From Vampirovibrio chlorellavorus (GTDB taxonomy: Bacteria > Cyanobacteriota > Vampirovibrionia > Vampirovibrionales > Vampirovibrionaceae), in assembly GCA_001858525.1 (NCBI GenBank), contig LAPX01000001.1, forward strand, positions 161,473-225,472: DNA of 64,000 nucleotides. The letters run 5' to 3'. Made by a program: the position numbers and the translations under genes. The notes below the pieces were generated by a model, which ran no database searches, was not told the DNA's origin, and saw only the letters and a program-made list of their open reading frames with translations. Positions 9,620 through 21,966 of this stretch are shown here, piece by piece (the first letter of the stretch is position 1; each line of letters opens with the position of its first letter).

Positions 9620-10870
9620 ATGCCTCAAAAGCCCATCTATCATTACCCCGTCCGTCTAGGAGCGGCTTGCGCTATTTCGGTGATGGCCTTGTCCGCAGCC
9701 CCGGCCTTTGCCTATCAACTGGACGCCCCCAATCGAACCCTCAACGTGGCCCCCGGGGCCAGCCCCAATGAGACCACCAACGATCTCAAAGGTGCTTTCA
9801 ACTATCTCGTCAATCGCAGTGACAAAGCCAACCAGTGGACTGTAAAATTCGCTCCCGGCAACTACTATATTGTGAGCCAAATTCCCATTCGAAACCTGGA
9901 AAACACCGTATTACAAGGCGATCCCAATAAACCGGCCAAGCTGATTAAGGACAAAACCTTTAACAGCGCCACCGCCGGAGAGTATTTACTGAATTTTCAA
10001 TTCGGCAAAAAGCTTTCCATGAACGGGCTACAGTTTTACGGACAAACCAGTTTTGCCGCCAGCCTGGCACCGGTGTGGCCGGATCAAGGTGTCTATTTTG
10101 GCTCCTGTAATGGGGTAACCGTGCAAAAAAACAGCTTTTATAACTTTGGCAACGCCGCCCTGCGGGTCACCACCACCGAACGGGATCCGGTGCCCGGGGT
10201 AAACAGCTTTAATACCGTGGTGGCCAATAACCTGTTCAACAACATCTATCAGATTTCCACCACGCCCAACGATGAAATTCATGGCGGCAGCACCAATTAC
10301 GTTTTGCAAAACAACGTGTTCTACAACCTGCGAGGCTCCATTAAATTCGCCTCTCGCACCGCCGGGGCCAAAAACGTGAAGATCCTCAATAATAAGGTCA
10401 ACGGCGGCGATCACTACGCCTTTGAAATTAACAATTACGATGACATGGAAATTCGGGGCAACAGCCTGCAAAACCTCAAGGAATTTGCCATCAACATCTA
10501 CAACAATCCCCGGGCCAGCCAGTCCTTCAATTGGGGCAACAATTTCATCATCGCCGATAACCTGATTAATACGGTGGGCCGGGGGATTCGCTTTAGCACC
10601 GAGCCTTACGCCGATGGCACCCTAGTGACGCCCAGCAACGTCACGTTCACCAACAACAGTCTGGACAAAGTCACTGACACCAGCGGCCTGCCAGCCATCG
10701 CCCAGGTCAACGGCACCATCAAAGGGCTAACCATTACCAGCAATAAATTCAACAACATTACCAACAAAAAATACATTGGCTACAATGCGGCCTCCAGTAA
10801 CGTGACCTACTTTAACAATCAAGCTAACGGACAACCTTACGGACCGCAACAAAGTACGACCAGTAACTAG
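9620..10870 (+). CDS. secreted right-handed parallel beta-helix repeat protein (pectate-lyase-fold; possible adhesin or polysaccharide-active enzyme)
   Basis: Signal peptide AISVMALSAAPAFA; Asn-rich periodic repeats (NNxFxN..., VxNNxF) typical of PbH1 beta-helix. Confidence 0.75.
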   Translation: MPQKPIYHYPVRLGAACAISVMALSAAPAFAYQLDAPNRTLNVAPGASPNETTNDLKGAFNYLVNRSDKANQWTVKFAPGNYYIVSQIPIRNLENTVLQGDPNKPAKLIKDKTFNSATAGEYLLNFQFGKKLSMNGLQFYGQTSFAASLAPVWPDQGVYFGSCNGVTVQKNSFYNFGNAALRVTTTERDPVPGVNSFNTVVANNLFNNIYQISTTPNDEIHGGSTNYVLQNNVFYNLRGSIKFASRTAGAKNVKILNNKVNGGDHYAFEINNYDDMEIRGNSLQNLKEFAINIYNNPRASQSFNWGNNFIIADNLINTVGRGIRFSTEPYADGTLVTPSNVTFTNNSLDKVTDTSGLPAIAQVNGTIKGLTITSNKFNNITNKKYIGYNAASSNVTYFNNQANGQPYGPQQSTTSN

Positions 10871-10893
10871 GCAAAGCGATCTCACAACAACAG

Positions 10894-10932
10894 GCGGGCT
10901 GAGGAAGCCAGGGTTCCCTTAGCCCGCTTTTG
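10894..10932 (+). terminator. rho-independent terminator
   Basis: GCGGGCTGAGG ... CTTAGCCCGC stem followed by TTTT immediately after the beta-helix gene. Confidence 0.55.
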
Positions 10933-11161
10933 CTGGAAGGCTTTATAAGGCGGCCAGCACCTTCCTCACATGAGCTGGCTATGAAAGAATGAAAGATAAA
11001 GTGCCATCCTGCAAGCCCAGGTTGGTACACTATGTTAAGAAATATAAACATCATTTTCAGCCGCCTCCTCAAGTATTGGTTCAGTCTGCCGATACTGATA
11101 AAGGAAAGGGCTAGCCAAAATGGTACACTCGCGAATTCTCTCCAAGAGAAGGACAGCATGT

Positions 11162-11770
11162 ATGTTCTCCACCCTGCGGCCTCAGCATTACCATCCATTC
11201 GGATTTACCCTGGCCGAATTGTTGATTTCTTTAGCCATTTTGGGAGTGATTGCCACCTTCACCATCCCCAAAATTCTTTCAAGTCAGCAGGATTCCAAAT
11301 ACAGCGCCTCCGCCAAAGAAGTGGTCGCCATGTTTTCCGACGCTTACCAACAAGCAAAGTTTTCCAGTAGTAACGTGGCCAGTATCGCACCTGCCAACTT
11401 GTTTCAATACATGAACTATGTAAAAACTGACACCACCTCTTCTATTGATGGTCTTTACACGCAAGGCGTCTACGGTGTTAATTGCTCTCAAAGACCCTGT
11501 ATTCAGCTGCACAATGGTGGCATTGTGTTGGCCAGTCAATGGAATTTCGGGGGAACCGGCACCACCAACTCCATCAACTTTATTTACGACCCCGATGGAA
11601 AAGTAACCGATGGCACCACCACCGGGCCCGGTAAGTCCGTCATTTTTTACCTCTATGCCAACGGGAGAATCGTAACCAGCGCCAATGTTCTGCCCGGGAC
11701 CACCAATCAATCTGGCGGAACGTATTCGGCAAACGCCAACCTGGACCCGCCCTGGTTCAGCTGGAATTAG
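11162..11770 (+). CDS. type IV pilin-like protein (prepilin-type N-terminal cleavage/methylation domain), paralogue 1
   Basis: Leader ...HYHPFG|FTLAELLISLAILGVIATFTIPKIL with Glu+5; RBS GAAGGA before ATG 11162 (ORF opens at 11120); Cys pair mid-protein; C-terminal DPPWFSWN shared with paralogues. Confidence 0.8.
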   Translation: MFSTLRPQHYHPFGFTLAELLISLAILGVIATFTIPKILSSQQDSKYSASAKEVVAMFSDAYQQAKFSSSNVASIAPANLFQYMNYVKTDTTSSIDGLYTQGVYGVNCSQRPCIQLHNGGIVLASQWNFGGTGTTNSINFIYDPDGKVTDGTTTGPGKSVIFYLYANGRIVTSANVLPGTTNQSGGTYSANANLDPPWFSWN

Positions 11771-11888
11771 AATTGATTTTTACAATTCCAAAAATCACCC
11801 TCAAGTTTTGGGATACCCTGTCGATAAGCGTCGTAGGTCAATTTATAAAGCGCCAAGTTAGTGCAGTCCTTTTCAAGAGGTTTAACCC

Positions 11889-12524
11889 ATGTATGAGCAG
11901 ACAGACAGACAGACAGACAGACAGACACGCCAGCTTAAACAACTTAATCTGAGCTGGCAAGGCTTTACACTCGCTGAACTGCTCATTAGTCTAGCCATTC
12001 TGGGCGTCATCGCTACCTTTACCATTCCTAAAATCCTGAGCGCCAGCCAAAACGAGGCAAATGAGGCGAAAGTAAAAGAAGCCGCAGCAACCCTTTCAGC
12101 AGCGTATCAACAAGCCAAACTAGACGGGGTCATCAATAGCAATACCAAGGGCTCGGATCTCACCCCATACCTGAATTATCTGGCCTGGGATAACAATGGA
12201 ACCACGACTATCGATCACGGGCCTTGGTCCACTTTTCAAACTTGTAATATCACTTTTCCCTGCGTCAAACTCGCGAACGGAGCAACGATCCTGTTTGACG
12301 GGGCGCAATTTGGGGGCACGGCTACCACCAACATGATTGCTTTTTATGTAGACCCGGAACCCGGCTACTCAGGCACCACCAATCCCGTGCGTTCCGTTTC
12401 AATGGTACTTTATTATGATGGCTTTATAACATCCCGCGCATACACCCGAGCGAATAGCTTTACCTCCGCCGGGGGACCTTACGGCCCTGGCAGTTTTGAT
12501 CCACCCTGGTTTACCTGGAACTAG
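11889..12524 (+). CDS. type IV pilin-like protein, paralogue 2, with (CAGA)7 repeat in the leader-coding region
   Basis: MYEQTDRQTDRQTRQLKQLNLSWQG|FTLAELLISLAILGVIATFTIPKIL...DPPWFTWN; RBS AGAGG. Confidence 0.8.
   Translation: MYEQTDRQTDRQTRQLKQLNLSWQGFTLAELLISLAILGVIATFTIPKILSASQNEANEAKVKEAAATLSAAYQQAKLDGVINSNTKGSDLTPYLNYLAWDNNGTTTIDHGPWSTFQTCNITFPCVKLANGATILFDGAQFGGTATTNMIAFYVDPEPGYSGTTNPVRSVSMVLYYDGFITSRAYTRANSFTSAGGPYGPGSFDPPWFTWN
11898..11927 (+). repeat. tetranucleotide repeat (CAGA)7CA inside the 5' coding region of pilin paralogue 2
   Basis: Read directly: cagacagacagacagacagacagacaca, encoding QTDRQTDRQT. Confidence 0.95.
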
Positions 12525-12629
12525 GGCAAAAATACACTTTTTACTATGATTTGAGGCGTTTATTAAAGTTTTTGGATGATGGGTCGATACCAAGAATGTC
12601 TGGAACCTAGCAATCGAGGTCAGTTGGTT

Positions 12630-13297
12630 ATGTTTCTAGCCCCCCCCCCCCCCCCCCCCCCCCCCGAAAACGCCTAAAGTCAGTCCTGGGCTTTACACTC
12701 GCTGAATTGCTGATTTCTCTGGCCATATTAGGGGTGATTGCTACCTTTACCATCCCTAAAATTTTATCCACCCAGCAAAACGCTCAGAACGTTGCCAAGG
12801 CAAAAGAAGCAGCAGCAATGATTTCAGAGGCTTTTCAGAAAGCAAAACTGAATGGTGTTATTACTTCAGCTACCAAACCCTCTGATTTAGCTGCTTACAT
12901 GAATTACGTCAGTCTGGACACTTCTGGCACACTCATGGATCACGTACCAGGCGTTGGTTCCAGGCCTTGTAATAATACATATCCCTGTATAAAACTTCAT
13001 AATGGCGGTATACTAAGTTTTGATGATGGGGCTACCTTTGGCGGCACTTCCAGTTTACATGCAATGTTTATTCTTTTTGATCCAGACGGGATTTACAGTG
13101 GTTCCACCGCGGACGGGCCTTCTAAATCTGTGCAATTTGCTATTTATTACGATGGCTTCTTAACGACCAGGGGGATAGTCAAAACCGGTACTGTTTATAG
13201 CTTGGGATCTCTTTCACCTGCTCCTAGCGAAGATCCATCTTGGTTTAGCTGGCAAGAATCTGGCGTCAGTACCATTGAGCCCGTAAGGCAAGAATAG
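12630..13297 (+). CDS. type IV pilin-like protein, paralogue 3. Its 5' end contains a 26-nt poly-C tract; ATG 12630 is out of frame with the pilin body in this assembly (phase OFF, or a homopolymer length error)
   Basis: ATG at 12630 (MFLAPPPPPPPP...) reaches a stop; the pilin frame (…PPP RKRLKSVLG|FTLAELLISLAIL… DPSWFSWQ) has no in-frame ATG after the stop at 12608. C25 or C28 would restore frame. Confidence 0.6.
12640..12665 (+). repeat. homopolymeric poly-C tract (about 26 nt) in the leader-coding region of pilin paralogue 3
   Basis: Read directly from the sequence. Confidence 0.95.
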
Positions 13298-13334
13298 TAC
13301 AATGGCGGCGCAGTGTTAGAGGAGCCAGCCGCGC

Positions 13335-14183
13335 ATGAGCATGACCGAAACCATTCCCGCCGTTTTGCCACTGGAAGACGGGTTTACGGATGTGCTGGGC
13401 AAAGCCCGCAAAGGCCTCAAGCTCTCCACAGAAACGCTGGCGGAACGCACCGGTTTATCCGCTCCTCAGGTGGAAGCCGCTTTTCAAGGCCAGTTGGACG
13501 AATCGACCCTACTCAAACTGGCCTTCACCCTGAATTTGCATGGGCCTTCTTTAATCGCTCTGGCCAAAAACGAATGGCAGCCCAAGCGCTTTCCAGATCT
13601 GGATGGATTGCAGCAGTTCACCACCTGGTACGGGGACATGACCGTCAACGCATACTTGCTGTGGGATACCGCCACCAAAGAAGCAGCCACCTTCGATACC
13701 GGGGCCAACTGTCAGAATATACTGGATTTCATCGAGTGTAACGGACTCTCCCTGAAAAAAATATTCATCACCCACACCCACATGGATCATCTGGCCGATC
13801 TAGAGCGTTTGGCCGGCAAGCATCCCACCGCCGTCTGTTACGGGTCCGCCGTGGATAACCCCTTGGGCCTCAAGCCGCTGATTGAGGGAGATGGGTTGAT
13901 TGTGGGCAATCTGAGCATTCGGGTACTGGGCACTTCTGGGCACACCCCGGGGGGCCTGAGCTACCGGGTTGAGGGACTGAGCCAGCCCGTGGTGGTGGTG
14001 GGCGACGCCCTGTTTGCCAGCTCTATGGGAGGGGCCCCCTACGCCTATCAGGAGGCCCGCAGTAATAACCTGAACAAACTTCTGACCTTGCCGGAGCAGA
14101 CCATTATCTGTCCCGGCCATGGCCCCATGACCACGGTGGGCGAAGAAAAAGCCCACAACCCGTTTTTCCCGGAAACCAAATAG
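13335..14183 (+). CDS. MBL-fold metallo-hydrolase with N-terminal HTH domain
   Basis: THTHMDH (HxHxDH) metallo-beta-lactamase motif plus downstream His/Asp ligands; N-terminal LSTETLAERTGLSAPQV helix-turn-helix. Confidence 0.8.
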   Translation: MSMTETIPAVLPLEDGFTDVLGKARKGLKLSTETLAERTGLSAPQVEAAFQGQLDESTLLKLAFTLNLHGPSLIALAKNEWQPKRFPDLDGLQQFTTWYGDMTVNAYLLWDTATKEAATFDTGANCQNILDFIECNGLSLKKIFITHTHMDHLADLERLAGKHPTAVCYGSAVDNPLGLKPLIEGDGLIVGNLSIRVLGTSGHTPGGLSYRVEGLSQPVVVVGDALFASSMGGAPYAYQEARSNNLNKLLTLPEQTIICPGHGPMTTVGEEKAHNPFFPETK

Positions 14184-14230
14184 ACCGGGCAATCAATTTT
14201 TACTATTTTGCAGCAGGGGAGATCACGCTG

Positions 14231-15139
14231 ATGACGCTTCAAAAGATTGGAATCGTTGGGGTGGGCCGCATGGGCTCCAACATGGCCCGACGCCTCAAAG
14301 AGCAAGGCTTTACCATTGCCGCCGTCTACGATGTGCAAACGGCCCTGACCGAGGAAATCGCCCAGGAGCTTTCTGCCACGGCCTGCCAAAGCCTCTCTGA
14401 GGTGACCCGCCTGTCGGACGCCATTATTACCGTGGTGAGCGATGATGCCGCCATGCGCTTTATCTTCCACAATCCCGATGATCATTTGTTGATGAATGCC
14501 ACAGGCAAGTTGTTCATCAACTGCGCTACCATTAGCCCGGAAGTGCATATTGCCTTGCATGCTCAGGCCTCAAAAGTTGGCGCTAAAACTCTGGAATGCC
14601 CCATGGCCTCCAGCATCAGCCAGGCCCGCACCGGCACCTTGTACCTGATGTGCGCAGGCGATGAAACGGTTTACCTGGAAGCCCAACCCCTGCTCAAGGC
14701 CCTGAGCGTCTCCAGTATTTACACGGGTGAACCCGGCACAGCGGCCCAGCTAAAGGCCCTGGTCAACATGGTCATGAACATCAACACCGCAGGCTTGGCG
14801 GAAGGCTTGGGGCTGGCGGATTCTCTGGGACTGGATCTCAATCTGGTGCGCCAAGTCTTTTCGCAAACCGGAGCCAATTCAAGGGTGCTGGAAACCGACG
14901 GCGAAGACATGCAAAATCGGGAGCACGACACTTATTTTTCAGCGGCCCACGCGGCCAAGGACAGCAGCATTGCCCTGTCCCTGGGACAGGCCTATGGCTT
15001 GCATTTGCCCATGGCGGAGGCCGCCAAACAACAGTACGAGCGCATGATTGCGCTGGGCCTGGGAGACTTGGACAAGTCCGGCGTCTCCGAATTAACCTTT
15101 CGGGACCGCTTGCAGGAAAGAACCCAGACCCCGGTTTAG
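14231..15139 (+). CDS. NAD(P)-dependent oxidoreductase, 3-hydroxyisobutyrate dehydrogenase/6PGDH-NAD-binding family
   Basis: N-terminal Rossmann motif IGIVGVGRMGSNMARRL; family-typical length and C-terminal domain. Confidence 0.85.
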   Translation: MTLQKIGIVGVGRMGSNMARRLKEQGFTIAAVYDVQTALTEEIAQELSATACQSLSEVTRLSDAIITVVSDDAAMRFIFHNPDDHLLMNATGKLFINCATISPEVHIALHAQASKVGAKTLECPMASSISQARTGTLYLMCAGDETVYLEAQPLLKALSVSSIYTGEPGTAAQLKALVNMVMNINTAGLAEGLGLADSLGLDLNLVRQVFSQTGANSRVLETDGEDMQNREHDTYFSAAHAAKDSSIALSLGQAYGLHLPMAEAAKQQYERMIALGLGDLDKSGVSELTFRDRLQERTQTPV

Positions 15140-15240
15140 CCAATTAACTTAACTCTAAGCTCATGCAGGGCAAAAAAAGAAATGGACCGGATTTATTATG
15201 TATACTTCCGATTTATTTTGTTCTGGTGACGAGGTTTCTA

Positions 15241-15672
15241 ATGGGCTCCCTGCCAATTCGCCCCCTGCCCAACAACTTACCAACCCCGGTAGCGCCACCC
15301 CCTGCGGTGGCCTATGCCTCCACGCCCGGATCACCCTTGCCAACGGCATCCAGCAGCCTGCCAAGAGCAACAGCAAGACCCATGCCCCGATCCTACACCC
15401 CGGAAATCTCCCCCGCTTTATCCGACTTTATTGATTTCCAAACCATGATGGCCTCCTCTCGCTACCTGCACCTCAAAGAAAAAAAACGAGTGTCTGTAGC
15501 TAAAACATCTTTTTTCTCGGCCATGCTTACAGCTGGACTGACGGCCATTCCGGTGACCGTGTCCGCCATTAACGGGCAAAGTGAAAAAGTGTTCCTCATT
15601 CCCATTCTGGGAACGCTGGCCGCCTTTCACGGAGCCGTGCTAGGCTTGCTGCTGAATCATAATCAGGATTAA
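15241..15672 (+). CDS. hypothetical Pro-rich protein with C-terminal TM helices
   Basis: RBS GAGGT before ATG 15241 (ORF opens at 15163); no recognisable domain. Confidence 0.35.
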   Translation: MGSLPIRPLPNNLPTPVAPPPAVAYASTPGSPLPTASSSLPRATARPMPRSYTPEISPALSDFIDFQTMMASSRYLHLKEKKRVSVAKTSFFSAMLTAGLTAIPVTVSAINGQSEKVFLIPILGTLAAFHGAVLGLLLNHNQD

Positions 15673-15717
15673 GCCCCAGCGGGGAAATGCTTTCAAGACA
15701 TCCTGTAATTCCCGCGC

Positions 15718-17898
15718 CTAAGAGACTGTCCGCATGGACAAGGCAATGCGCTTGCGAGGAATGTCCACTTCCACCACGCTGACCTTGACCACATCGCCCG
15801 CTTTCACCACGCTGTGCGGGTCTTTCACATAGCGATCGGCCAGCATGGAAATGTGCACCAAGCCGTCCTGATGCACCCCCACATCCACGAAAGCGCCAAA
15901 GTTGGTCACGTTGGTCACCACGCCTTCCAGCTGCATACCCGGCTTTAAATCGCTCATGGTTTCCACCCCGTCGGCAAAGGTGGCCGTTTGAAAAGCTGGG
16001 CGTGGGTCGCGTCCCGGTTTGTCTAGCTCCGCCAGAATATCCCGCACCGTGGGCAAACCAAACTGATCGTCGGTAAACTCCGTGGGCTTTAAAGTAGATA
16101 AAAAGGCCTTATCCCCAATCACAGCCCGAAGTTCTCGCCCGGATTGCTTCAGGATTTTCTGCACCACTGGATAGGCTTCCGGGTGCACCGCTGAGGCGTC
16201 CAGGGGATTGTCCCCATTGGTGATGCGCAAAAAGCCAGCGGCCTGCTCAAAGGCCTTGGGCCCCAATCGGGGCACTTTTTTTAGGGCCGTCCGGTTGGAA
16301 AAGGCGCCCTGCTGATTGCGATACTCCACAATGGACTGGGCCAAACTGGGAGACAACCCGGCCACATAACGCAGCAAGGCAGGCGATGCCGTATTCACAT
16401 CCACGCCCACGGCGTTCACGCAATCCTGCACCACGGCATCCAGTCCCCGTTCCAACTGGGTTTGATTCACATCGTGCTGGTACTGGCCCACCCCAATGGC
16501 CTTGGGCTCAATTTTCACCAGCTCGGCCAGGGGATCTTGCAAACGACGGGCAATGGACACCGCCCCCCGCAGGGACACGTCCATGTCCGGCAGTTCCTGA
16601 GAGGCCAAAGCGGAGGCTGAATAGACAGAGGCCCCCGCTTCCGAGACCAGGGCCTTGGTAATTTTCAGATCGGGGTGCCGCTTCATTAAGGTGGTCACCA
16701 GCCGATCGGTCTCCCGGGAGCCGGTACCGTTGCCAATGCTAACCAAGGTCACCGCATGCTTTCGAATCAGGGCTACCAACGCATCTATGCTGGCCTGCTC
16801 CTGATTTTGGGGCGGGTGCGGATAAATAACGGACGTTGCCAGCACCTTGCCGGTGGCATCTACCACGGCCACTTTCACCCCGGTACGCAGGCCCGGGTCC
16901 AGCCCCAAGGCCACCTGATGTCCCGCCGGGGCGGCCAGCAACAGATCCCGCAAGTTTCGGGTAAACACCTGAATGGCTTCCGCCTCAGCCCGTTCCCGCA
17001 GCTGGGCCATTAAATCGCTTTCCAAATGGGGCAGTAATTTATCCCCCCAGGCCGCTTGAAAGCAGGCCGCCAGCCAATTGTCAGCAGGCCGGTTTTGAGA
17101 CCGCCAGTTAAAGTGCCGGGTAATGCGCCCCACTAGTTGCTCAGTGGCCCGTTCCACATCCGCTTTTTGGGCAGCGGGCTTTAAAGACACCCGTAAAAAA
17201 CCTTCCTGCTTCCCCCGGAACAAGGCCAAAGCCCGATGCGAGGGAATGGCCCGAATGGGTTCCACGTAATCGAAATAATCGGTAAATTTAGCCGCCTCCG
17301 CCTGCTTGGCTTTCACCACCGTGGAAATCACCACCCCGCTATTCCACAAAAATTCCCGTAAGGCCCCAATTAAAGGCGGGGATTCCGAAAACTGCTCCAC
17401 CAGAATATGAGCCGCCCCTTCCAGGGCCGTTTTCACATCGGGTATGCCCGCTTCCGGGTTCACGAAGGCAGTGGCCGCCGTTTCCGGGGCCTGATTCGGA
17501 TTCTGAAACAACCGCTCCGCCAAGGGGGCCAAGCCCGCCTCTCTGGCCATTTGGGCTTTAGTTCGACGCTTGGGCTTGAAGGGCAGATACAAATCTTCCA
17601 GCTGGGCCTTGGTTTGAGCCGTCTCAAAGGCCTGCTTCAATTCATCGGTCAGCTTGCCCTGTTCCGTCACGCTCTCTAAAATGGCCTCCCGGCGCTTGGA
17701 TAAATCCCGTAAATACTGCAAGCGCTCATCCAAGGTGCGCAGTTGCGTGTCATCCAATCCGCCGGTGGCTTCCTTGCGGTAGCGGGCGATAAAGGGGATG
17801 GTGGCCCCCTCTTGGAGCAAGGCTAAAACGGCACTGACCTGGCGCTCCTGCACCTGTAATTCCTGGGCAATTTGGCGACTAATCAGGACGTCATTCAT
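15718..17898 (-). CDS. tex: transcription accessory protein Tex (S1 RNA-binding, YqgF and HhH domains)
   Basis: N-terminus [43 protein letters not shown] and C-terminal S1 domain are diagnostic of Tex. Confidence 0.9.
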
Positions 17899-18065
17899 GG
17901 AAAAAAGGCCTTCAACACACACACAACGGGAAGCGGTAAAAGACGGGCTTTGACATATTCTGCGACTTTACTGCCGCTTTATTATACACAAAGCGCTGGT
18001 CAAATAAGGTCGCCTCGCCCCATTCAAGACTATACGCACTCTACTGGAAGTGCTTCAATGAGGGC

Positions 18066-18959
18066 ATGAGCAAAACCACAACCATTTACGGGGTGGATTT
18101 CACCAGCGCCCCCAGCCGGAAAAAACCCATTGTAGTGGCCCAATGCGCCTTGCACCACCAAACCCTGACCTTGCGACAACTCTTGAAGATCACCGATTTC
18201 GAGGAATTTGAACAGTTTTTAAGAACCGAAGGCCCCTGGATAGCGGCCATGGATTTCCCGCTGTCCTTGCCCCACAGTTGGTTGCAAGCCATACAGTGGC
18301 CCACGGACTGGGCGGCATCTGTCAGCCACATCCGACAACTCACCCTAAAAGCCTTTTGCCAAACCATCAACGACTACTGCCACCAGCAACCAACCGGGCA
18401 AAAGCATCACTTTCGGCCCATCGATAGACTGGCCGGAGCCTGTAGCCCCATGACCATTTACTACACTCCGGTGGGCAAAATGTTTTATCAGGGGGCCTTT
18501 CGCTTGCTGGAAGCCGGGGTGACCGTGCTGCCTTTTCAACTGAATCAGCTCAGCCAAGTCAATCCGCCCCGCATAGTGGTGGAAGGTTACCCGGCCCTAA
18601 TCGCCCGCCAGCTGTGCCCCAAGCAGGGCTACAAGTATGACAGCCCGCCGGCCAGTGCCGCCCAAAAATCGGCCAAGGACTTTGCCCGTCAGGAGATGAT
18701 CCAGAAACTGTCTGCCCAATGGCTGGAAGAAGACTTTGGTATAACAATCGATCTGAATGGGCACGCTGACACACTGAGGCAAGATGCCACCGGGGATTCT
18801 CTGGACGCTGTGTTTTGCGCCATTCAGGCCGCTTGGGCTTATAGCCAGCGAGAGGCAAACTTTGGCATCCCGCAAACCGAAGAGACCCAAGAGGGGTGGA
18901 TTACTGTGCCGCTTCACTTTCTGAAGCAAAATCAACCAAACCCATTGCGCAAAAATTAG
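18066..18959 (+). CDS. hypothetical protein, DUF429-like (predicted RNase H-fold)
   Basis: N-terminal IYGVDFTSAP...KPIVVA resembles DUF429 openings; no other motif; divergent from tex. Confidence 0.45.
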   Translation: MSKTTTIYGVDFTSAPSRKKPIVVAQCALHHQTLTLRQLLKITDFEEFEQFLRTEGPWIAAMDFPLSLPHSWLQAIQWPTDWAASVSHIRQLTLKAFCQTINDYCHQQPTGQKHHFRPIDRLAGACSPMTIYYTPVGKMFYQGAFRLLEAGVTVLPFQLNQLSQVNPPRIVVEGYPALIARQLCPKQGYKYDSPPASAAQKSAKDFARQEMIQKLSAQWLEEDFGITIDLNGHADTLRQDATGDSLDAVFCAIQAAWAYSQREANFGIPQTEETQEGWITVPLHFLKQNQPNPLRKN

Positions 18960-19275
18960 GCAATTTAAGCCAATTTGTTGTTTTTATTAAATCAGCATAT
19001 AAAGCACAGGCCGAGGCGAACCGTATGAGTGCGTGCTTAAAGTAAGTACGGTTCTTATTATGCCCGGCCTGTCTTTTTTATAAGGCCAGCATAAGGTCAG
19101 GCTGCCTTCATCATCTGTTTGTAACTGTATGAGTACAGCGAGTTAAGAAATTCAGGCTGGGCAATTTTGCCAGAAGCAATTCCACGCCTTGTTTAAGCTG
19201 CACGCAGTTTTACAAACCGGTGATGAAGGAAGCCTGACCTTAAATATATTCGAGGCCTTAAAGCCGGGCGTGGCC

Positions 19276-19614
19276 TTAGCGATCCTGAGGGAAGGCGGCC
19301 AGCAATTTTTGAACCACATGCGGAGTGGCCCCTTGCCCCAATGACACCAGCTTTTGGTTCAGAAAAACCACATCCAGCCGGGTGTTGCACTGGGCCAACC
19401 CTTCATTGATTTGAGAAAACTGCTGATCCAGTCCACTGGGGCTGAGTCCGCCCAAGGCCATGGCCTGCCGCAGCAAAGTGACCCCGGCCACCACATTGGG
19501 AATTTTCAATTCCAGAATGTTTAAAGTGGGCGAAGGGCTTGATTGCAAACGCAACCGCTGGCCATCGTTTAGCTCAATGTCCAGGTCAGCCTGAACCAGC
19601 AGATTCTCAAACAT
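19276..19614 (-). CDS. hypothetical protein (112 aa), downstream member of a two-gene pair
   Basis: ORF with good codon usage, 10 nt downstream of the 19624..19833 ORF; no recognised motif. Confidence 0.45.
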   Translation of the reverse strand: MFENLLVQADLDIELNDGQRLRLQSSPSPTLNILELKIPNVVAGVTLLRQAMALGGLSPSGLDQQFSQINEGLAQCNTRLDVVFLNQKLVSLGQGATPHVVQKLLAAFPQDR

Positions 19615-19623
19615 GGGTCATCC

Positions 19624-19833
19624 CTACTTTTGGTCGCGGGTGGTAATTTTTACCACGCCGTTTACTTTCCATTTGGCCTGCTGAGAGTCCTGCGCCGTGC
19701 TGGAAGGCACAAATACTTCCAGGTTCTCAAACTGATAGGTAATTTCAGCCCCACGGCCGGTCAGTTTGTCGTATAAACCAATGGCCAATTCCGGCCAGGT
19801 GTGCGTTTCTTTGTCAGCAATTACATTCGCCAT
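19624..19833 (-). CDS. hypothetical small protein (69 aa), upstream member of the pair
   Basis: ORF MANVIADKETHTWPELAIGLYDKLTGRGAEITYQFENLEVFVP...; coding-like. Confidence 0.45.
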   Translation of the reverse strand: MANVIADKETHTWPELAIGLYDKLTGRGAEITYQFENLEVFVPSSTAQDSQQAKWKVNGVVKITTRDQK

Positions 19834-20070
19834 AATGAATCAACTCCCATCTCTCAATAACAGCCAGTACGCATTTAAAACCTGTATACCGATCAGTATA
19901 CTGATGAACTTTGTTTTTTACAAGTTCTCACGGATTATCGATTTTAGCGGTCTTTCATTCTCAAGAAAATTAGTCAGGTCGCTAGGCAGGCCTGCCTCCT
20001 GTCATCCTTCCAATCTTCAACTTGATAAAACCCACTTAAAGTTGGCCTGAGATTGATCTAGACTAAGCCT

Positions 20071-20550
20071 ATGAAAAAATACATGCCGTTTTTTATCATC
20101 TTTTTGCTGATCAGCACCATTCCGGCGCTGGTGTTTGCCCTCTTTCCCAAGGCCGCTTCCAATATCAACAGCGGCGATATTCCCAGTTTCAATCAAGCGA
20201 CGAGTAAAAATTCAACCGGTGAGCAGGAAGTACAGACCGCGGATTATCTGCTGCGTTGGCGCAGCGAGCCCGGTCCGCTCAAAGCGGGCCAACCCACTCG
20301 TTTGACGCTGAATATTTTAAGTCGGGCCTCTGGCAGCCCTTGGGATGGACACCCCACCGCCACCCTGATTAGCCGCTCCAAACTTGGTAGCGAGACCAAG
20401 CCCATTCCGGTGAACGTGAAAGCCACCCAGCAAAGCGGCACCTTCCAACTGGGAGCCAGCATTCCTCAAGCAGGCCCGTGGGCCCTGCACTTAAACTTAA
20501 ACGAGCATCAAGAACCTTTGGTTATCCAACTCTATATTCCTGAGTCTTAG
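20071..20550 (+). CDS. secreted hypothetical protein (YtkA/FixH-like fold possible)
   Basis: Signal peptide MKKYMPFFIIFLLISTIPALVFA; no catalytic motif. Confidence 0.55.
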   Translation: MKKYMPFFIIFLLISTIPALVFALFPKAASNINSGDIPSFNQATSKNSTGEQEVQTADYLLRWRSEPGPLKAGQPTRLTLNILSRASGSPWDGHPTATLISRSKLGSETKPIPVNVKATQQSGTFQLGASIPQAGPWALHLNLNEHQEPLVIQLYIPES

Positions 20551-20720
20551 CGAGTTACTTTCAATCATTGCTTTCAAGGGGGCTTTGCCCCCTGTAACCC
20601 CCACTGGAGGGAGAACAGAGTCCAGCGCCAGCGCTGCCCCCCCTCCAGACCTCCCCATGCTTATCTATTTTCTCTCATCCTCAGAAGTGTTGGTGACAAG
20701 CGCCCCAGCCAAGCCATCTT

Positions 20721-20862
20721 GTCATTCCCGCGCAGGCGGGAATCCACTAAGCCAACTTGCGTTCAACTTTCTGAATATTTCCTGCATTTTTTCCGAGCAC
20801 GTTTTCTTGAAAAGGGCTTACAGTTCCAGTGCTGAATGGATTCCCGCCTGCGCGGGAATGAC
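20721..20862. mobile_element. MITE-like element, copy 2, same 26-bp dRS3-like inverted termini as 7444..7561
   Basis: GTCATTCCCGCGCAGGCGGGAATCCA at 20721-20746 and its reverse complement ending at 20862; internal sequence differs from copy 1 (mosaic). Confidence 0.55.
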
Positions 20863-20922
20863 AAATAACACATCAAGGGATAATTCAGACCATTCAATCA
20901 AGACCGGCCCCCAATCTTCTGA

Positions 20923-21966
20923 TTACGGGGAGGGATTGGGATATCGGGTATGGATGGCCTCGATGGCGGCCAGCAACTCAGGGGATAAGGTCACCTGGGC
21001 GCTGTCGATATTCTCCTGCAACTGGGCCAGACTGGTGGCCCCAATGATATTGCTGGTCACAAAGGGCTGCTGATTGACAAAGGCCAGACACATCTGGGCC
21101 GGGCTGAGGCCATGTTGGCCAGCCAGCTCTACATAGGCATCGGCGGCGGCCAGGGCTTGCGCATTGGAATAGCGATCAAAATAATCGCCAAACAGGGCCA
21201 TGCGGGAACCGGTGGGTTTTTGCCCATTTCGATACTTCCCGCTCAACAGGCCAAAGGCCATGGGGGAATAGGCTAACAGACCCACTTGCTCCCGAATGGC
21301 CATTTCGGCCAGACCAATTTCAAAGGTTCGGTTCAACAAGCTGTAAGGGTTCTGGATGCTGACTACCCGGGGCAGATTCAATTGCTCGGCCACTTTTAAA
21401 AACTGGGCCACGCCCCAGGGGGTTTCGTTGGACAAACCGATTGCCCGCACTTTGCCCGCTTGCACAAATTCTTGCAACACAGACAAGGTTTCCGCAACCG
21501 GGGTAAAGGTTTCATCGGGTTGGTGTTTGTAGCCCAATTGCCCGAAAAAGTTGGTGGTGCGCTCCGGCCAATGGAGCTGATAGAGATCCAGGTAATCCGT
21601 TTGCAGACGCTTCAGGCTATCGTGCAAGGCTTTTTCCATGTTCTTTCGATCAAAGCGCAGGTTGCCATCCCGAATGTAGGTGAGGCGCTGGGTAGGACCC
21701 GCCACTTTGGAGGCCAATACGATCTTCTCCCGGCATCGGCGAGCGGACAACCAGGTGCCAATAAACGTTTCGGTGATGCCGTAGGTTTCCCCCCGAATGG
21801 GCACCGGATAAACTTCAGCGGTATCAAAAAAGTTGACCCCATGCTCTAGGGCGAAATCCATTTGAGCATGCGCTTCCGTTTCGGTGTTTTGCTCGCCCCA
21901 GGTCATGGTGCCCAAGGCAATCACGCTGACCTTGACCTCGGTATTTCCCAATAAGCGCATTTCCAT
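20923..21966 (-). CDS. NADP(H)-dependent aldo/keto reductase (Tas-like)
   Basis: MEMRLLGNTEVKVSVIALGTMTWGEQNTE...DTAEVYPVP AKR signature; 348 aa from Met at 21966. Confidence 0.88.
   Translation of the reverse strand: MEMRLLGNTEVKVSVIALGTMTWGEQNTETEAHAQMDFALEHGVNFFDTAEVYPVPIRGETYGITETFIGTWLSARRCREKIVLASKVAGPTQRLTYIRDGNLRFDRKNMEKALHDSLKRLQTDYLDLYQLHWPERTTNFFGQLGYKHQPDETFTPVAETLSVLQEFVQAGKVRAIGLSNETPWGVAQFLKVAEQLNLPRVVSIQNPYSLLNRTFEIGLAEMAIREQVGLLAYSPMAFGLLSGKYRNGQKPTGSRMALFGDYFDRYSNAQALAAADAYVELAGQHGLSPAQMCLAFVNQQPFVTSNIIGATSLAQLQENIDSAQVTLSPELLAAIEAIHTRYPNPSP

Follow-up and report, generated by a model that had tools for sequence, protein, structure and literature searches.

A putatively orphaned inverted pair of NTS/CGTC-1 hairpin repeats in Vampirovibrio chlorellavorus

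Two convergent genes of Vampirovibrio chlorellavorus are separated by a short element with identical inverted ends, one of two such elements with the same ends in the window (the whole 64,000-nucleotide stretch of DNA analysed here). The locus raises three questions: to which family do the ends belong, what has kept them intact around DNA that resembles no other copy, and what has the element done to the chromosome that carries it? The explanation that we favor, with a probability of about 0.75, is that the element is a head-to-head (HH; tags outward) homodimer of the 27-28-nt hairpin repeat known as NTS or CGTC-1. The dimer would be an orphan of an Ssn-linked family, its core passenger DNA, and dimers of this kind would serve as substrates for recombination.

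Anatomy of the element and the family of its ends

The element occupies positions 20720-20863 (144 bp) and consists of two perfect 27-bp inverted termini that enclose a core of 90 bp (Table 1). A preliminary description of this DNA, made from the letters alone, had correctly recognized inverted termini common to this element and the copy at 7444..7561, but placed them between 20721 and 20862 with a length of 26 bp; each arm is one base longer per side. The core length of 96 bp given there does not agree with the sequence. The element lies in the 372-bp gap between the secreted-protein ORF and the aldo/keto reductase (AKR) gene, as had been described, and the stops of the two frames fall at 20550 (+) and 20923 (-). 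Each arm is composed of a TGTC tag, an 8-bp stem formed by ATTCCCGC and GCGGGAAT around a 4-nt loop (GCAG), and a CCA tail. Fold computation predicts that a single unit, as single-stranded DNA, adopts this 8-bp/4-nt hairpin with an energy of -8.9 kcal/mol (z about -3.7 to -3.8). The whole 144-bp element, as RNA, could form one long hairpin of -72.5 kcal/mol with a z of -9.2, and of -8.1 on the other strand.

Table 1. Features of the window at and around the element; strand is given as + or -, with a point where none applies.
Feature	Position	Strand	Remarks
Sister dimer	7443..7562	.	120 bp; identical 27-bp units, unrelated 66-bp core; sits at the second breakpoint of the 13-kb inversion
Segment between the two dimers	7690..20633	.	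13 kb; inverted in G007 (and G003) relative to V. chlorellavorus and the outgroup G001
Secreted-protein ORF, 159 aa	20071..20550	+	3' end faces the element
G-rich palindromic repeat, about 85-89 nt	20572..20660	+	G000:C3:182044-182132; 60 bp upstream of the dimer
Left hairpin unit (NTS / CGTC-1 REP)	20720..20746	+	TGTCATTCCCGCGCAGGCGGGAATCCA; TGTC tag 20720-20723, dRS3 core 20724-20743, tail CCA
Core (spacer)	20747..20836	.	90 bp, non-coding, single-copy passenger DNA
Right hairpin unit	20837..20863	-	Exact reverse complement of the left unit; tag outward (TGTC 20860-63, other strand)
Aldo/keto reductase (AKR) gene	20923..21966	-	3' end faces the element; longest ORF reaches 22071

CGTC-1 repeats are defined by a CGTC tag (with TGTC and CCTC variants), an 8-bp stem that starts with AT, a 4-nt loop and a CCA-like tail, and the family takes in the dRS3 repeat of Neisseria (Di Nocera, De Gregorio, Rocco 2013, BMC Genomics 14:522, PMC3733652). 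The units of the element agree with this definition at every point, with a TGTC tag, an AT-starting stem of 8 bp, a 4-nt loop and a CCA tail. Like CGTC-1 repeats, those of V. chlorellavorus occur mostly as HH homodimers downstream of genes, their spacers fall within 20-100 bp, and they come with no dedicated transposase, which CGTC REPs in general lack (PMC3733652). They differ in two respects: all ten spacers are unrelated, whereas spacers of HH dimers are conserved "as a rule of thumb" (PMC3733652), and the Vampirovibrio lineage is missing from the five phyla in which CGTC repeats were listed in 2013. The NTS motif, which is 28 nt long, also contains dRS3 (Chenal et al. 2025, Nat Commun, PMC11893778). 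The V. chlorellavorus unit lies 2 mismatches from this motif, contains dRS3, carries a directional 5' tag and forms inverted pairs. The element belongs to this known family (CGTC-1 REP = dRS3/NTS) in its usual dimer form.

The preliminary description had likened the element to dRS3 and to the intergenic mosaic elements (NIMEs) of Neisseria, and both comparisons hold. The 26-27-mer recurs with 100% identity in chromosomes of N. gonorrhoeae, and the arrangement dRS3-core-dRS3 is the building unit of NIMEs, in which dRS3 repeats surround RS elements of 50-150 bp (Bentley et al. 2007, PMC1797815). The element likewise presents the dRS3 pattern around a 50-150-bp segment of lower G+C and, like NIMEs, is tied to recombination and rearrangement (Parkhill 2000, Bentley 2007). 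Unlike NIMEs, the V. chlorellavorus units are isolated rather than set in long arrays, and their cores lie outside the repeated RS families; as of 2007, NIME arrays had not been seen outside Neisseria (PMC1797815). Two records used as Neisseria reference, NZ_CP119140.1 and NZ_CP119142.1, are titled N. gonorrhoeae plasmids, yet at about 2.17 Mb they are chromosome-sized and mislabelled.

Matches that are 93-100% identical to the 26-27-mer occur in Azospirillum, Sphingomonas, Cupriavidus, Legionella, Aeromonas and others, and the sequence is not restricted to one lineage. Among 41 relatives of V. chlorellavorus, the 25-mer (<=2 mismatches) is present in 18, and copy number ranges from 0 to about 200 per genome. 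The Microcystis phage MaAM05 (MW495066.1, 274 kb) has 23 unit-like places that include pairs, for example at 175800-175919; no ssn-like match was found in that record, and a search for phage carriage of ssn gave only one weak match, in an uncultured phage.

Copies, cores and a neighboring repeat

The pattern ATTCCC-N8-GGGAAT occurs at 4 sites in the window, where 0.31 are expected and none of 100 shuffles reaches 4. Across the 3.03-Mb V. chlorellavorus assembly (51.4% G+C; designated G000, the other G numbers being genomes of relatives) the pattern has 20 sites and its reversed control none. Both units of the element match the regular expression for SRM, the degenerate motif of the NTS study (PMC11893778), and 19 sites in G000 lie within 2 mismatches of the NTS consensus. 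That expression is too loose for a census, with 35 hits in G000 compared to 16-24 in shuffled genomes, and the 25-27-mer with mismatches was used instead. The census proposed in the preliminary description, which had raised the possibility that no additional copies exist, shows that they do: G000 contains about 10 HH inverted pairs (103-147 bp) and about 5 solo units (27-mer, mismatches allowed). Four further dimers have arms as perfect as those of the element. The 15 loci all fall between genes, 14 of them beside the 3' end of one gene or more. The core had been described as different from, and unrelated to, that of the sister copy; this is true of the whole set, in that blastn-short finds no similarity between any two cores and all ten are single-copy in the genome.

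Several features of the surroundings were also recorded. At G000:C27:135566-138230, units enclose a 650-aa gene (135926-137878), which has a solo unit on its upstream side and a dimer on its downstream side; this unit-gene-unit arrangement resembles one put through transformation assays by Chenal et al. (PMC11893778). None of the known DUS is enriched in G000, and an origin of this DNA in Neisseriaceae was rejected. The G-rich repeat that precedes the element comprises a GGGGC-N3-GCCCC hairpin and a longer imperfect palindrome and is not in Rfam. Its 13 copies in G000 show a physical linkage to the hairpin units, with 6 of them no more than 200 bp from one compared to 0.04 expected (maximum 2 in 20,000 permutations), and the same end is always turned to the unit. 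Composites of this kind recur in G001, G003 and G006. The G-rich repeat is either a preferred neighborhood or target for NTS units or a piece of a larger composite.

Two relatives show other arrangements of the units. In G019, a genome with about 200 units, 20 dimers (L023-L042) have common sub-terminal core segments around a variable middle, in both orientations; one end of the core bears a small GCCAGC...GCTGGC hairpin and the other a T-rich ...CTTTTCCT. These dimers look like a recently amplified family. In G006, the NIME-like array L201 (G006:C4:35750-36600) contains four perfect head-to-tail units separated by related spacers of 86-90 bp and closes with a 64-bp spacer and an inverted unit (5 units in all). 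Two other loci of that genome are tandem dimer pairs whose cores are near-identical (L202) or identical (L203).

The Ssn nuclease in relatives and its absence from the genome

SsnA is a 94-aa single-domain GIY-YIG protein of the cd10448 type that binds the NTS on single-stranded DNA and cuts upstream of it in a strand-specific manner; 42% of ssnA homologues have NTS-type motifs on both sides, and the NTS-ssnA-NTS architecture is that of an insertion sequence (PMC11893778). Among the relatives, the small GIY-YIG proteins are of two clearly distinct types, designated A and B. Type B is the Ssn type, an assignment made from 55-57% identity to a Neisseria locus and from the flanking units; the locus in question, in N. 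gonorrhoeae, is set among 11 units within 1.5 kb. Type-B genes occur in G003, G007, G014 and G031, in each case with a unit on both sides and tags outward. The gene fills the position that the core takes in the element, and its 3' end enters the hairpin. Throughout congeners and many phyla, type-B genes encode single-domain GIY-YIG proteins of roughly 95-110 aa, as in the NTS-Ssn system. The hairpin (<=4 mismatches) stands on both sides, tags outward, in 35 of 80 type-B loci from very diverse phyla, and 24 more have another hairpin arrangement; most loci hold exactly two copies. NCBIfam has no model for either small type, and a sequence search of the PDB found no Ssn chain, the nearest solved structures being UPF0213 proteins.

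Open reading frames at the element also run into the hairpins. Those at 20585-21073 (+; 162 aa, through both arms) and 20763-20897 (-) traverse both the G-rich repeat and the hairpins and yield peptides such as HSRAGGNP and IPACAGMT; the preliminary description had judged frames that translate the termini to be spurious, and the 20585-21073 frame bears this out. The real ssn ORF of G003 and G014 likewise enters the hairpin and acquires a ...DSRLRGND tail. Frames that read through the hairpins are a likely source of annotation artefacts, which the locus flags for annotators.

G000 itself contains three GIY-YIG matches (PF01541), two of which lie in UvrC-sized frames of about 600 aa and the third in a small gene at G000:C22. 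The small protein is of type A, which looks, by eye, UPF0213/YhbQ-like. Type A never adjoins a repeat and is also present in G004, G009, G012, G016 and G025, genomes with zero units. The C22 gene was rejected as a partner of the repeats: its contig carries no repeats, its type occurs in zero-unit genomes, and it scores 32 bits on a profile of type B. That profile was built from 37 sequences and gives 143-158 bits to true type B and 28-33 bits to type A; among 39,668 open frames of G000 it matches the type-A gene and no other. No ssn pseudogene was found in G000 by tblastn. Because G000 has no detectable ssn, its roughly 10 dimers and 5 solo units appear to be orphans without an Ssn nuclease.

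V. chlorellavorus therefore departs from the NTS/SRM-Ssn system in the feature of an ssn gene in the same genome, which G003, G007, G014 and G031 possess. It also has about 25 units, compared to hundreds in pathogenic Neisseria, and the host is a Vampirovibrio (Melainabacteria) rather than a proteobacterium. Nor does the number of units track ssn within the family, since ssn was detected neither in G019, a 390-contig draft with about 200 units, nor in G018, which has about 60. The association with Ssn is strong across phyla and loose within this bacterial family.

Congeners, a 13-kb inversion and competing explanations

In comparing the congeners, we examined both the site that ssn occupies and the site of the element. 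The NTS-ssn-NTS unit of G003 and G007 lies between flanks that are contiguous in G000 (empty site G000:C8:22996-23017, about 25 bp between genes). The site (L110-L118) is empty in G001 too, and G002, G004, G005 and G006 hold there four unrelated AT-rich inserts of 440-1060 bp. G000:C8:22996-23017 and its orthologues are an intergenic insertion hotspot. Because unrelated inserts fill this hotspot in four other congeners, the empty site of G000 does not disclose the direction of change. Between the two occupied loci, L095 (G003:C22) and L098 (G007:C11), identity is about 89% in the flanks and 100% in the NTS units; the enclosed ssn cassettes reach only 59% at the protein level, and blastn does not align their DNA. 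This suggests replacement of the cassette between the hairpins.

The site of the element has a history of its own. The two convergent genes stand about 38 nt apart in G006, with no repeats, and G001 has the G-rich repeat only and nothing like the dimer or the core. In G003 and G007, the copy that follows the G-rich repeat has decayed: its core is homologous, and its right arm differs from the consensus at 7 of 27 positions. We infer that arms and core entered once, as one unit, after the split from G001 (or were lost in G001), and that the core was inherited thereafter; entry as a single unit is read only from the length and the absence of the core, because the intergenic DNA of G001 is too diverged for a base-exact pair of filled and empty sites. 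The orthologous cores of G000 and G003 differ in 15 of 71 aligned columns (about 20%), and third-codon positions of the AKR gene differ from those of G000 by 19% in G003 and 24% in G007. Since the core diverges about as much as these third-codon positions, it is passenger DNA that drifts neutrally. The arms in G000 show 0 changes in 54 sites (P about 0.003 at roughly 10% change per lineage), and the termini remain identical to the family consensus. The decayed copy belongs to G003 and G007, which bear ssn, and its decay there runs counter to what maintenance by Ssn alone would predict.

Further comparison revealed a structural change that involves both dimers of the window. G001 and the window are collinear from 2348 to 26612. 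In G007, the segment between the dimers is inverted relative to both flanks, and contigs of G003 carry the two matching junctions. One dimer falls in each of the two breakpoint intervals, 7358-7690 and 20633-20923. Because identical inverted hairpins coincide with both breakpoints of the inversion in the G003/G007 lineage, the dimers act as recombination substrates, and inversion breakpoints at the dimers are the one demonstrated consequence of the element. The junction with the decayed arm fits an exchange that paired the first dimer's left arm with the second dimer's right arm, which would have been followed by decay or deletion.

Taken together, these data are consistent with a model in which the element corresponds, without a gene, to the NTS-ssn-NTS unit of sister Vampirovibrio species and many phyla. 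Ssn, or something acting with Ssn, would once have spread the units. With the tags pointing outward, the nuclease would cut one strand just outside one end and the other strand just outside the other, a pattern like that of insertion-sequence ends. Orphan units would persist in intergenic DNA, nearly always by a gene 3' end, and their hairpins may be kept uniform by selection, gene conversion or recent spread.

A more dynamic reading, which we consider unlikely, holds that inverted NTS pairs define exchangeable cassettes and that single-strand cleavage and repair directed by the hairpins excise, swap, duplicate or flip the contents, be they a nuclease gene, a unique core of 50-90 bp or 13 kb of chromosome. 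It draws on the divergent ssn cassettes between identical hairpins in G003 and G007, the ten unique cores of G000, the amplified unit-plus-spacer arrays of G006 and the 13-kb inversion that ends at two dimers. If true, the unrelated cores would be captured DNA and not decayed copies. We regard as quite unlikely a role at the level of RNA, in which the dimer, situated in the 3' UTRs of convergent genes, would be a stabilizing or processing hairpin or a bidirectional stop, and this would conserve the termini. Such a role has been proposed for REPs (PMC3733652); it accords with the position of the element between convergent 3' ends, with the 14 of 15 loci beside a gene 3' end and with the very stable RNA fold of both strands, and termini that are constrained without ssn do call for some explanation. 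However, neither hairpin is followed by a T-run, and terminator-like sites number 0 in 20000-21300 compared to a shuffle mean of 1.7. An intrinsic terminator, one of the two roles that the preliminary description had offered for the termini, finds no support in the sequence, as no hairpin-plus-T-run site exists in that interval. An Rfam search with the element returned sub-threshold noise only. In addition, the same hairpin surrounds a nuclease gene across phyla, which points to recognition at the level of DNA, and Ssn neither binds nor cuts RNA (Chenal 2025, PMC11893778).

The remaining alternatives invoke other enzymes. The element had been called MITE-like in the preliminary description, and perfect terminal inverted repeats, a length of 103-147 bp and multiple copies are what one would expect of a classical MITE, that is, a deletion derivative of an IS moved by a DDE-type transposase that recognizes the 27-bp terminal inverted repeats; the G019 dimers, with their common sub-terminal core segments, resemble a young MITE family. 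Several observations make this very unlikely. The repeating unit is the 27-28-nt hairpin, which also occurs solo and in head-to-tail arrays; the cores in G000 have nothing in common; the flanks show no direct repeats indicative of target-site duplication and lean instead towards inverted complements; no IS or transposase with these ends was found in G000 or the relatives searched; and across phyla the termini accompany a GIY-YIG gene, not a transposase. It is similarly hard to credit that the hairpins persist as attachment or target sites for IS110/Piv-type recombinases or filamentous phages, although dRS3 is documented in that role for the Nf phages of Neisseria and recombination at the hairpins is evident from the 13-kb inversion. 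Targeting by IS110/Piv was rejected: G000 has no IS110-type gene, and none of 20 IS110 loci in the relatives has a unit within about 1.5 kb. Moreover, an attachment site would account for persistence only, and for neither the dimer form nor the link to ssn. The comparison with REPIN-RAYT systems and the BIMEs of E. coli is instructive, inasmuch as two inverted REP hairpins with a spacer are the layout of a REPIN, the doublets are intergenic in both, and both feature a single-copy enzyme gene flanked by its own repeats. In the present family, the associated enzyme belongs to the GIY-YIG nucleases rather than to the Y1 HUH transposases, and no RAYT accompanies it. Spread by a single-copy Y1 (IS200-like) RAYT transposase is largely refuted, since PF01797 is absent from G000 and from 24 other genomes of the same family, including G019 with its about 200 units; the only two PF01797 matches, both short, come from another family and have no repeats in their vicinity, and CGTC REPs have no dedicated transposase (Di Nocera 2013, PMC3733652).

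The repeat family and its nuclease partner have been described already, and the element itself is ordinary. Its value lies in a natural comparison within one genus, in which orphan pairs in a genome without ssn can be set beside sister species whose NTS-ssn-NTS occupies a site that has no insert in G000. The comparison also includes a neutral core between uniform hairpins and a 13-kb inversion whose ends fall on two dimers. This set is useful for understanding how such hairpins spread, persist and shape genome structure outside Neisseria.
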